From contig JAUWKS010000072.1 of assembly GCA_030614005.1 (NCBI GenBank), positions 1 to 15,350 of the forward strand: a stretch of DNA of 15,350 bases, read 5' to 3'. The DNA is from Candidatus Heimdallarchaeota archaeon (GTDB lineage Archaea; Asgardarchaeota; Heimdallarchaeia; JABLTI01). The notes beneath the pieces were generated by a model that was not told where the DNA came from, made no database searches, and saw nothing but the letters and a program-made list of their open reading frames with translations. Below, piece after piece: positions 7,429-9,621 of the stretch. The position numbers were made by a program, and so were the translations under genes. The first letter of the stretch is position 1, and every line of letters begins with the position of its first letter.

Positions 7429-9621
7429 TTGAAAAGAAAGGGATTATCATTACTTGTAATTTATTTATTTTTGCTAACTGTTATTGGAACCTGTTTTGTA
7501 TCAGATGATATACCTAATGCAAAAGGTGTTGACCCATACTTCACATTGGTCTTTAAAACAAATGGTGGAGGAGTTAGACCAGATTATGGTAACTTCCTCA
7601 AGCATCATCTAGCAAGAATCGGAATAAACGTAGATGTTATTGTACAGGATTGGCCAACTTTTGTTGGTGAATTGATCGCTTACCGTGATTTCGATATTTG
7701 TTATGCTTCTTTCGCTGGTAATGGTGCTGATCCAGACTTTACCGGTGTATACAACGAAAATGGTTCTCTCAATATATTTGGTTATTACACCGATATGGAT
7801 TATAACGAAACCCTTGGTACTGGTGTAAATGAGTGGTATATGAAACAAGGCAACTTAATTATACCTCCCAACAGTACTGAAAGAATTCAGCACTACTGGG
7901 TATGGGAACAATATTTGATGGATAAAATTTTACCATGTCAACCAACATTCGCTCCAAAAGTTTATACCGCAATCTGGTCCAACTTAGCTGGATACGATAT
8001 TGAAGAAGGTGTAAAACAATCATGGGGTAAAATGGAATTCACTGGTACACATGATGGTCAAATAGACAATACAGAAATCGTCACAACTGACGCAGCCTGG
8101 TCAGATCTTAACCCATTGTTCCAAGATGATACTTCATCAAGTACAATCAGTACAGCTACAATGGACACTCTAATTTACTACGATGATGATTTAAGCGTTC
8201 ACCCACATTTAGCTGAAAGCTATACATTCATCAATGACACAACTATTGAAATCGTATGTCGTGACGGTATCAAATGGCAAGACGATCCAGATGGGTTATT
8301 CCCAGGAGAATACTTTGATGCTGAAGATGTTTATTTCACACTTTACTCTTGGGCAACACTCTCAAATAATGTAGCCAAATATTCTTGGATAAAGAAAATG
8401 GAAATCGTAGATGATATGACTCTCAGACTTTATATTGATGGTAAACCAGATACTCCAGAAAATGATCCTTTCACACCTGCTCTCTCTTACTTGGCAAAAG
8501 AAATTCTCCCAGAGCATTATTTGAACCAAACGCAATTAGCTGATGGAGTTACTCCAGATATATCTGCAGCTTCTTGGAATACCTTCGCAACCCACTGTTT
8601 TGGAACTGGTCTATTCGAACTTGGTGCTTTCACTGAAGGTATTGAAACACAATTAACTGTATTCGATGACTACTGGTTGTTAGACGATAGTGTAGATAAA
8701 ACCAACATGGATTTTATAAACAGATTTGGTGACTTCACTGGTGGACTAGATACCTGGAGAATCAGAATTATTCCAGATCAACAAACCGCTTTATTAGAAT
8801 TCCAAGCCGGTAAAACCGACCTCGAAGGAGTTACACAATTCCCAGAGACACGTGAAGAAATGATCATTGATCCAGACTTTAATGTCCAAAATGACACTAG
8901 ATTCTACCTCGGTTTCTTCGGTTATAACATGCGCCCTGTAAGACCAGTTATCGGCAGCTATGCCAAAGCACCTGGCGACGCTTCAATGACTGTTGGTTTA
9001 GCCATCAGAAAAGCCGTATCTTACGCTCTAGATAGAGTTGAAATCAATAATATTATTCACAGAGGTGAATACACAATCACAGATCACCCAATCTATATGA
9101 AGATGGGAATTTGGTGTAATCCTAACATTATTCGATACAATCACGACCTCGATTTAGCACGAGAATATATGGCAATTGCAGGATATGAATATCCACAACA
9201 TACTTATGGTTTTGACGATAGATTATTTTTTATAGATTTTCTAATGATTTTTGTAATATTCATATTGCCACTATTGATATTATTAACTGTTATTTTTTTA
9301 TTAGGCTACTTTTCATTTAGAGGATTAAATAGATCTGAAGAACCAACTAATTTTACAAAAAAACTCAAATTTAATTGCTATTATTGTAATAAATCCATTA
9401 AAAGAGATATTTCTATCTGCCCGAATTGTAACAAAACGATTCCACATTGTATTGTTTGTAGTTTACCAATCGCTCAAAAAAGTATCATTGGGAAATGTGT
9501 TCATTGCGATAAAGTAGCTCATTTAACGCACTTACAAGAATGGTTGAAAGTGAAAGGATATTGTCCAAATTGCTCTATGCACCTAAGGGAAGCAGATGTT
9601 ATTATTGAAGGATATAATTGA
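7429..9621 (+). CDS. Circularly permuted family-5 (DppA/OppA-like) solute-binding protein fused to a TM helix and cytoplasmic zinc-ribbon + RING-like domain
   Basis: SBP5 motifs are SDLNP, HPHLAESY, RDGIKWQD, FDAEDVYFT, FGTGLFEL, IRKAVSYALDR, AREYMAIAGY and LARIGINVDV. TM is at 9223-9318 and the Cys/His module at 9376-9573. AGGAG at 7414-7418 favours the TTG at 7429 (MKRKGLSLLVIYLFLL signal peptide) over 7384. Confidence 0.85.
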   Translation: MKRKGLSLLVIYLFLLTVIGTCFVSDDIPNAKGVDPYFTLVFKTNGGGVRPDYGNFLKHHLARIGINVDVIVQDWPTFVGELIAYRDFDICYASFAGNGADPDFTGVYNENGSLNIFGYYTDMDYNETLGTGVNEWYMKQGNLIIPPNSTERIQHYWVWEQYLMDKILPCQPTFAPKVYTAIWSNLAGYDIEEGVKQSWGKMEFTGTHDGQIDNTEIVTTDAAWSDLNPLFQDDTSSSTISTATMDTLIYYDDDLSVHPHLAESYTFINDTTIEIVCRDGIKWQDDPDGLFPGEYFDAEDVYFTLYSWATLSNNVAKYSWIKKMEIVDDMTLRLYIDGKPDTPENDPFTPALSYLAKEILPEHYLNQTQLADGVTPDISAASWNTFATHCFGTGLFELGAFTEGIETQLTVFDDYWLLDDSVDKTNMDFINRFGDFTGGLDTWRIRIIPDQQTALLEFQAGKTDLEGVTQFPETREEMIIDPDFNVQNDTRFYLGFFGYNMRPVRPVIGSYAKAPGDASMTVGLAIRKAVSYALDRVEINNIIHRGEYTITDHPIYMKMGIWCNPNIIRYNHDLDLAREYMAIAGYEYPQHTYGFDDRLFFIDFLMIFVIFILPLLILLTVIFLLGYFSFRGLNRSEEPTNFTKKLKFNCYYCNKSIKRDISICPNCNKTIPHCIVCSLPIAQKSIIGKCVHCDKVAHLTHLQEWLKVKGYCPNCSMHLREADVIIEGYN

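Follow-up and report, generated by a model that had tools for sequence, protein, structure and literature searches.

What does a tandem of zinc ribbon and RING finger do at the end of an archaeal solute-binding protein, and where did it come from? The question is raised by one gene on a 15,350-nucleotide stretch of DNA (the window) from Candidatus Heimdallarchaeota archaeon (assembly GCA_030614005.1, contig JAUWKS010000072.1, positions 1 to 15,350, forward strand). The gene encodes a solute-binding protein (SBP) ectodomain, a single transmembrane helix and a Cys-rich tail, and we refer to its product as the SBP-RING protein. We consider it probable that this protein is a receptor-like, membrane-anchored RING E3 ligase built from an SBP, a helix and a zinc ribbon joined to an srfp-type RING, with a tail that is kin to the zinc domains of the IFT-A and GATOR2 complexes and a fusion to the SBP that is young. 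The parts of the gene are listed below, with residue numbers here and throughout counted from TTG 7384.

7384 to 9621, + strand: open reading frame (ORF) of the SBP-RING protein, a single open frame of 745 aa from TTG 7384
7429 to 7500, + strand: basic and hydrophobic N-terminal segment (aa 16-39), a signal peptide or signal anchor by hydropathy scan
7516 to 8103, + strand: N-terminal part of the ectodomain (aa 45-240), with weak matches (E 0.26-0.56) to residues 360-441 of DppA, AppA and HbpA
8197 to 9198, + strand: SBP_bac_5 core (aa 272-605), Pfam PF00496, E 1.7e-37, 129.9 bits against a cut-off of 32.4
9223 to 9318, + strand: transmembrane helix (aa 614-645), hydropathy 3.35, occupying the position of the PGF-CTERM anchor of paralogues
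9319 to 9375, + strand: basic juxtamembrane linker (aa 646-664), RGLNRSEEPTNFTKKLKFN, read from the sequence
9376 to 9429, + strand: zinc ribbon CYYC-x10-CPNC (C665, C668, C679, C682), its four Cys invariant in 125 of 125 family members
9430 to 9447, + strand: six-residue linker NKTIPH, of equal length in WDR19 (KNSIPY), MIOS (RKPLPR) and WDR24
9448 to 9573, + strand: RING of the archaeal srfp type (C689, C692 / C705, C708 / H713, H716 / C727, C730), ligands invariant
9574 to 9621, + strand: C-terminal 15 residues and stop, with a modelled strand at residues 82-84 of the tail model (about aa 740-742)

The zinc ribbon and RING tail

A preliminary description of this DNA, made from the sequence without database searches, had placed a zinc ribbon and RING tandem at positions 9376 to 9573 (aa 665-730). 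The coordinates are exact: CYYC-x10-CPNC is followed by NKTIPH and then by CIVC-x12-CVHC-DKVA-HLTH-LQE-W-LKVKGY-CPNC. The ligands predict three zinc sites, with a RING pattern of CxxC-x12-CxxC-x4-HxxH-x3-W-x6-CPxC. All 12 Cys and His ligands are invariant in 125 aligned, non-identical family members, and the tandem is thus not a chance run of Cys residues. In an AlphaFold2 model of the tail (mean predicted local distance difference test, pLDDT, 90.8) a RING core of beta-hairpin, helix and strand lies behind knuckle loops, and the tail carries a RING/U-box fold (Z 7-8). Its RING ligands are of the order C4H2C2 (C-x2-C-x4-H-x2-H), not the C3H2C3 of the RING-H2 cross-brace. NCBIfam contained no match for the tail. 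A role of the ribbon as a nucleic-acid-binding or transcription-factor domain was considered and dropped, as no full member of the family has the ribbon without the RING and its best matches are all RING-associated.

The basic charge of the juxtamembrane linker would place the tail in the cytoplasm under the positive-inside rule, and the product would then be a type-I membrane protein. The likelier start of translation is TTG 7429 (MKRKGLSLLV...), a typical signal-peptide start with GGAG about 10 nt upstream; annotated orthologues of the protein measure 734-746 aa. The basic and hydrophobic N-terminal segment is present as well in paralogues of about 620 aa that are described below. A word-based homologue search with the tail region, to which limits of query length and word apply, returned three close orthologues only.

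The tail belongs to a mobile cytoplasmic module that recurs on many Asgard surface and repeat domains. A profile built from ten tails, run against 1.84 billion proteins, matched 2,483 representative clusters at E<=1e-3, of which 707 reach E<=1e-10. The complete pattern is found in 130 of the 149 best profile hits, a transmembrane helix lies upstream in 84 of 143 pattern-bearing top hits, and the median distance from the end of the module to the C-terminus is 18 aa. Partner domains among 79 scanned members include HEAT (7), TPR (7), LVIVD (5), LRR (2) and others. Cluster names for ten family members are mostly blank; one is that of a plant multi-RING ligase, which indicates that generic RING-H2 proteins enter the lower end of the hit list.

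Within the genome that contains the window, a pattern scan recovered ten full ribbon and RING proteins and seven with the RING half only, all with CxxC-x4-HxxH. Four of the ten full proteins have the order ectodomain, transmembrane helix, tail. The domains that accompany the tails in this genome include the SBP, an FG-GAP propeller with TSP3, LRR, a CARDB-like region and TPR. The module is present in every one of the 41 genomes of the class (2-30 matches each, 23 in this genome), and in 46 of 61 genomes sampled across the phylum, or 16 of 20 families. In distant Asgard families the tail profile often matches the RING half alone, in ORFs of 80-100 aa. A further full-length tail match in this genome (contig C67, 46874-47119) contains an in-frame TAG and may be a broken copy.

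The RING half and the ubiquitin machinery

Asgard archaea are already known for eukaryote-like features that include RING E3 ligases and ubiquitin-ESCRT genes. The RING half of the tail has the ligand pattern and the E2-contact Ile/Val and Trp of the archaeal srfp proteins encoded in ubiquitin operons of Aigarchaeota and Asgard archaea (PMC5654768). For the srfp of Caldiarchaeum, E3 activity that requires Ile, Trp and Arg residues of the protein has been shown, and the same shifted C3 ligand was noted in it (PMC5654768). Unlike the SBP-RING protein, srfp proteins are free-standing, about 80-100 aa long, and have no ribbon, membrane helix or ectodomain. 

A direct comparison is offered by a 1.4-Mb Asgard genome (G052), in which an 81-aa srfp RING ORF lies in an E1/ubiquitin/E2 cluster (locus 3374-8154). 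This RING has exactly the pattern CxxC-x12-CxxC-x4-HxxH-x3-W-x6-CPxC, is 36% identical to the RING half in the window and is matched by the tail profile at E 3.5e-16. The preliminary description had taken CxxC-x4-HxxH-x3-W-x6-CP as a mark of GATOR2, a specificity that the 81-aa RING removes: what had been called GATOR2 spacing is the archaeal srfp spacing, which GATOR2 RINGs share. The genes of the G052 cluster encode an E1-like protein (ThiF plus a ubiquitin-like end), ubiquitin, the 81-aa srfp, a 150-aa ORF of no known type, an E2/UEV-like protein, Vps28 and a Vps22/36-like protein; a Yip1-domain gene lies just upstream of the cluster.

The E2-contact residues of the tail are V691, W720 and P728, with S731 at the linchpin position. 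The three contact positions are conserved across the family (V/I in 122, W in 120 and P in 122 of 125 members, or 96-98%). Among the genes of this genome are those for ubiquitin (77 aa), for an E2 of 157 aa (113 bits), for two other UQ_con proteins and for three ThiF proteins. Based on the conserved contacts and the genome's ubiquitin and E2 genes, we read the SBP-RING protein as a receptor-like RING E3. An extracellular solute-binding domain of the peptide/nickel class (SBP_bac_5, cluster C) would be linked by one helix through the membrane to a RING that docks the E2~ubiquitin of this genome via V691, W720 and P728. The tail may then ubiquitylate itself or nearby membrane or cytoplasmic proteins, possibly in dependence on ligand occupancy of the ectodomain. 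The E3 activity, its targets and any control by ligand are all inferred. A 181-aa ORF with a Cas12f1-like TNB (TnpB-type) domain adjoins the best E2 gene of the genome (contig C29, ORF 631-1176).

The same layout of a luminal or extracellular domain, one helix and a cytoplasmic RING is known from the PA-TM-RING/RMR proteins (Arabidopsis RMR1) and the ATL/EL5 ligases, and the RINGs of RMR1 (7BVW) and EL5 (1IYM) are among the matches of the tail profile. In contrast to the SBP-RING protein, RMR and ATL ligases have a canonical C3H2C3 RING-H2, no ribbon ahead of it and unrelated ectodomains; the likeness is one of design, not of shown descent. The layout of ectodomain, helix and RING suggests that the Asgard cell surface is coupled to ubiquitylation, a design previously tied to eukaryotic membrane E3s.

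Three observations weigh against a ligase. The linchpin position is S731 here and is basic (Lys or Arg) in just 33 of 125 members, whereas the srfp studied in Caldiarchaeum has an Arg that is important for function. The genes for ubiquitin, E1 and E2 are scattered in this genome, none of them near the SBP-RING gene, with ubiquitin on contig C123 and the 157-aa E2 on contig C29. Finally, in the nearest eukaryotic relatives the module serves as structural glue and not demonstrably as a ligase (PMC9646525, PMC10066299).

A purely structural role is the main rival. The tail would be a non-catalytic assembly module, as in SEACAT/GATOR2 and IFT-A, which pairs to cluster or tether surface proteins without ubiquitin transfer. 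In the closest solved relatives, the SEAC RINGs heterodimerise and have no known ubiquitin role (PMC9646525), and the IFT-A zinc domains sit at subunit interfaces as inter-subunit glue, with zinc chelation destabilising the complex (PMC10066299). The missing basic linchpin agrees with such a role, and the 10 to 23 paralogous tails in one genome would supply many possible partners. An AlphaFold homodimer prediction with two copies of the tail scored 0.00 against a mark of 0.42 and weighs neither way on pairing. We nonetheless regard a scaffold as unlikely. The V/I, W and P of the E2 contact are kept at the frequencies given above, which would be superfluous in a pure scaffold; the RING half is of the same type as the srfp encoded in ubiquitin/E1/E2 clusters, a homologue of which has E3 activity; and the tail keeps all three zinc sites, whereas WDR19 has lost one in its RING.

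Likeness to the IFT-A and GATOR2/SEACAT zinc domains

Archaea are not known to have cilia. The preliminary description had proposed that the tail shares the ligand spacing of the GATOR2/SEACAT C-terminus, as in WDR59, WDR24 and MIOS. This spacing is borne out by HMMER, which aligns MIOS and WDR24 with the tail ligand by ligand, with a CxxC-x10-CxxC ribbon and a six-residue linker. Among solved chains, a single-sequence phmmer search returned only WDR19, MIOS and WDR24 at E<0.01. The alignments to these run the whole length of the module and keep every ligand in register, the ribbon Cys falling on the first zinc site of all three, and WDR19 and MIOS also have the [IL]-P-x-C junction.

Structure comparison points in the same direction and gives WDR19 first place. 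In Foldseek, the first 28 places in the PDB and the first 20 in Swiss-Prot all go to IFT-A, IFT172 and GATOR2/SEACAT chains; among clusters of the AlphaFold database (AFDB), 13 unnamed or RING-type entries come first, followed by IFT121-like and WDR19 entries. The best structural match is WDR19/IFT144 of IFT-A (VIA Z 10.9, root-mean-square deviation 2.8 Å, 86 of 87 residues, 27% identity), which scores 2.6 Z above the next chain; WDR24 reaches Z 6.2-6.3 at 7.7 Å.

In WDR19/IFT144 (PDB 8FH3, 8BBG; also IFT121/WDR35 and IFT122) a ribbon, a six-residue linker, an I-P-x-C junction and a RING-like unit follow one another as they do here. The tail forms the same compact ribbon and RING-like unit (Foldseek E 7.7e-6, TM-score 0.75-0.78). 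The two differ in that WDR19 has lost RING zinc site 1 (C1, C2, H5, H6), all three sites being retained in the tail, and in that the WDR19 module follows two WD40 propellers and TPR repeats, whereas in the SBP-RING protein an extracellular SBP and a membrane helix come first. WDR24, WDR59 and MIOS (Sea2, Sea3, Sea4) have the ligand order and spacing of the tail (Foldseek E 1e-4 to 1e-3), with loop insertions in MIOS. These GATOR2/SEACAT proteins have a body of propeller and solenoid and heterodimerise in a cage with Seh1 and Sec13, and nothing similar is seen in the SBP-RING protein. Ahead of its tail we found no beta-propeller or alpha-solenoid (protocoatomer) body, the body consisting of SBP_bac_5 and one transmembrane helix.

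No closer prokaryotic counterpart to the C-terminal zinc domains of IFT-A (WDR19/IFT144, IFT121, IFT122) and GATOR2/SEACAT was found here than the whole ribbon and RING module. The idea of an Asgard relative of the GATOR2/SEACAT tail is partly supported: the build is the same and the ligand spacing is that of WDR24, MIOS and WDR59, but there is no clear preference for GATOR2 itself. Foldseek does put GATOR2/SEACAT above plain RINGs, a position shared with IFT-A and IFT172 chains; WDR19 ranks higher, and RING-H2 domains tie with GATOR2 in profile searches. In its whole build the tail is closest to the IFT-A C-terminal zinc domains, and less close to those of GATOR2/SEACAT.

The kinship has its own counter-evidence. 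Profiles of 10 or of 125 tails rate the RINGs of RNF126, RNF24, Arkadia and EL5 equal to those of WDR19, MIOS, WDR24 and WDR59 (1e-6 to 1e-4), with individual scores of 1.6e-6 for RNF126, 2.1e-6 for WDR19, 1e-5 for MIOS and 4e-5 for WDR24/59. Homology to IFT-A and GATOR2 rests on a short Cys-rich domain, at E-values of 1e-5 to 1e-6 and with this RING-H2 tie. A VIA rigid-body search over PDB representatives at 40% identity placed U-box and RING domains first (Z 7-8). WDR19 is absent from that listing and appears in a second-look search; its omission is due to the choice of representatives and not to a poor fit.

Pfam gives a similar picture. The matches of the tail to PF17120 zf-RING_16 (25.2 bits against 27.4) and PF17034 zinc_ribbon_16 (24.0 against 27) are both under the cut-off, as are those to PF13639 zf-RING_2 (16.9 against 27.3) and to PF14446, prokaryotic RING finger family 1 (18.2 against 29.1), the last covering the ribbon and not the RING. 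A single RING-only paralogue reaches about 27.2-27.7 bits, and zf-RING_2 matches as often as zf-RING_16 across the paralogues. From the profile ties and the ranking of U-box and RING domains, we conclude that the RING half has an ordinary RING fold and that it is the two-part build which singles out the IFT-A and GATOR2 tails.

These results can be read as convergence, in which Asgard archaea and eukaryotic coat-like proteins each separately acquired an ordinary zinc ribbon ahead of an archaeal RING; the tail may still be an E3 in that case. Both zinc ribbons and RINGs are short, widespread domains that frequently occur together, profile scores are level with those of plain RING-H2, the Pfam cut-offs for GATOR2 families are missed and U-box and RING domains lead the rigid-body PDB search. 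Named clusters closest to the tail in a language-model comparison include bacterial ones of Prok-RING_1 plus zinc ribbon, which at scores <0.9 are leads only. On the other side are the end-to-end alignment, the six-residue linker, the [IL]-P-x-C junction and the fit to WDR19 detailed above; moreover, the top 30 AFDB clusters contain IFT121 and WDR19 clusters and no bacterial cluster. We see convergence as a real if doubtful possibility.

We would only tentatively suggest the opposite, that the tail is the direct prokaryotic ancestor of the zinc domains of protocoatomer complexes (IFT-A, GATOR2/SEACAT, perhaps HOPS/CORVET) and arose from a ribbon fused to an srfp RING. Under this scenario the earliest role of the module would have been that of a cytoplasmic output domain for surface receptors and repeat scaffolds, and part of the eukaryotic membrane-coat toolkit would go back to a ubiquitin-ligase module that acted close to the archaeal membrane. 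Should the kinship hold, the archaeal origin of one component of the coat-like complexes could be traced, and a small soluble domain would suffice to test it. In the literature searched, no paper connects an Asgard protein family with the IFT-A or GATOR2/SEACAT C-terminal zinc domains.

The solute-binding ectodomain and the origin of the fusion

The ectodomain comprises about 570 aa and belongs to PF00496 by its Pfam score, which is over the cut-off, and by its SBP fold. Its nearest NCBIfam families are Opp4A and NikA. The AlphaFold2 model (pLDDT 92.9) was matched by Foldseek to NikZ, DppA, AppA and HbpA at E 7e-15 to 1e-12, over only about 400 of the 573 ectodomain columns. The canonical SBP N-terminus aligns from aa 241 onward only, in an alignment that ends at residue 323 of a 497-aa chain, and the first ~190 residues of the ectodomain resemble, by weak matches, the canonical C-terminal lobe of cluster-C SBPs. 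This order of parts suggests that the ectodomain is circularly permuted. The permuted-looking order is common to the whole Asgard family of SBPs of about 620 aa.

Fold and Pfam family are those of the SBPs of cluster-C ATP-binding cassette (ABC) importers (DppA, AppA, NikZ/NikA, HbpA/GbpA). The SBP-RING protein differs from these in its seemingly permuted segments, in the lack of permease or ATPase genes nearby and in its attachment, which is by a helix to a RING tail rather than by a lipid or PGF-CTERM anchor. No ABC permease or ATPase genes were found in the window around the gene. The genome has eight BPD_transp_1 matches, none of them on a contig with any of the six close SBP copies, which are the gene in the window and its five paralogues; a distant SBP copy alone shares a contig (C81) with a permease, about 30 kb away.

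The preliminary description went on to propose that an Asgard relative of the GATOR2/SEACAT tail, joined to a nutrient sensor, would be a parallel or precursor of the signalling of amino-acid availability to TORC1. The ligand spacing common to WDR24 and MIOS and an ectodomain of the peptide/nickel SBP class speak for this, and an SBP gene away from ABC transporter genes fits a sensor better than transport. However, the tail-less paralogues are likewise unlinked to ABC genes, as is a tail-less relative in another genome, and absent linkage is therefore no mark of a sensor. The best match of the tail is IFT-A and not GATOR2, its signature is the general one of archaeal srfp proteins, a propeller or solenoid body is lacking, and the same tail is found on propellers, LRR, HEAT, TPR and other domains. 

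The history of the fusion bears on the same question. The close tail-less relatives form a large Asgard family of about 620 aa with an archaeosortase-type PGF-CTERM anchor (PGF...KKRK). The genome itself has five such paralogues, 63-83% identical to the SBP-RING protein over the ectodomain; four SBP paralogues (63-77% identical to the ectodomain in the window) form a tandem array on contig C101 (16020-23622), which has no ABC permease. Comparison with the paralogues (C16, 6777-8681; P0005-P0030) indicates that the anchor has been replaced in the window gene by a different helix and the RING tail. Of the 41 class genomes, just two gave a full match to a query spanning the SBP-RING junction, namely this one and that of another species in the genus. 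In a tree of 121 ectodomains the tail-bearing proteins occur in two places: the pair with the SBP-RING protein is nested by starred branches among PGF-CTERM proteins and the other pair sits on a long branch outside, so that at least two changes of RING label are needed.

A further clue to how the tail arrived is the mosaic identity between the SBP-RING protein and the protein P0002, which is 51% in the ectodomain, 96% in the transmembrane helix and linker and 99% in the tail. On a related contig (locus L033, 3-4528), two SBP-RING genes of divergent ectodomain type stand in tandem, and this tandem precedes the same GMC oxidoreductase gene that follows the gene in the window. Mosaic identity and tandem together suggest that neighbours exchanged a cassette or underwent gene conversion. 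On the simplest reading, a cassette of transmembrane helix and tail moved between neighbouring paralogues and replaced a PGF-CTERM anchor.

As judged from these comparisons, the SBP fusion is young and local and arose within one genus; it neither represents nor documents an old tie between nutrient sensing and a GATOR2-like module. With the junction limited to two of 41 class genomes, an origin from PGF-CTERM proteins and tails on many unrelated domains, the proposed parallel or precursor of nutrient signalling is not upheld, and we consider it very improbable. The gene instead presents the tail as a movable cassette that replaces an archaeosortase-type anchor, and a tempting but unsupported link to TORC1-type nutrient sensing is removed.

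The neighbours of the SBP-RING gene in the window encode oxidoreductases, a beta-lactamase-fold protein and a propeller receptor. Overlapping the RING gene at its 3' end, on the opposite strand, is an 84-aa ORF without family match (9519-9773, - strand) that is unlikely to be a real gene. The upstream gene at 606-3308 (+ strand) encodes an ectodomain of FG-GAP/Beta-prop_ACSF4 propeller and TSP3, like that of a RING-tailed paralogue on contig C25 (2822-5299). Its cytoplasmic end differs from that of the C25 paralogue and was described as longin-like on first reading of the sequence; similar outside domains thus occur with different inside modules.

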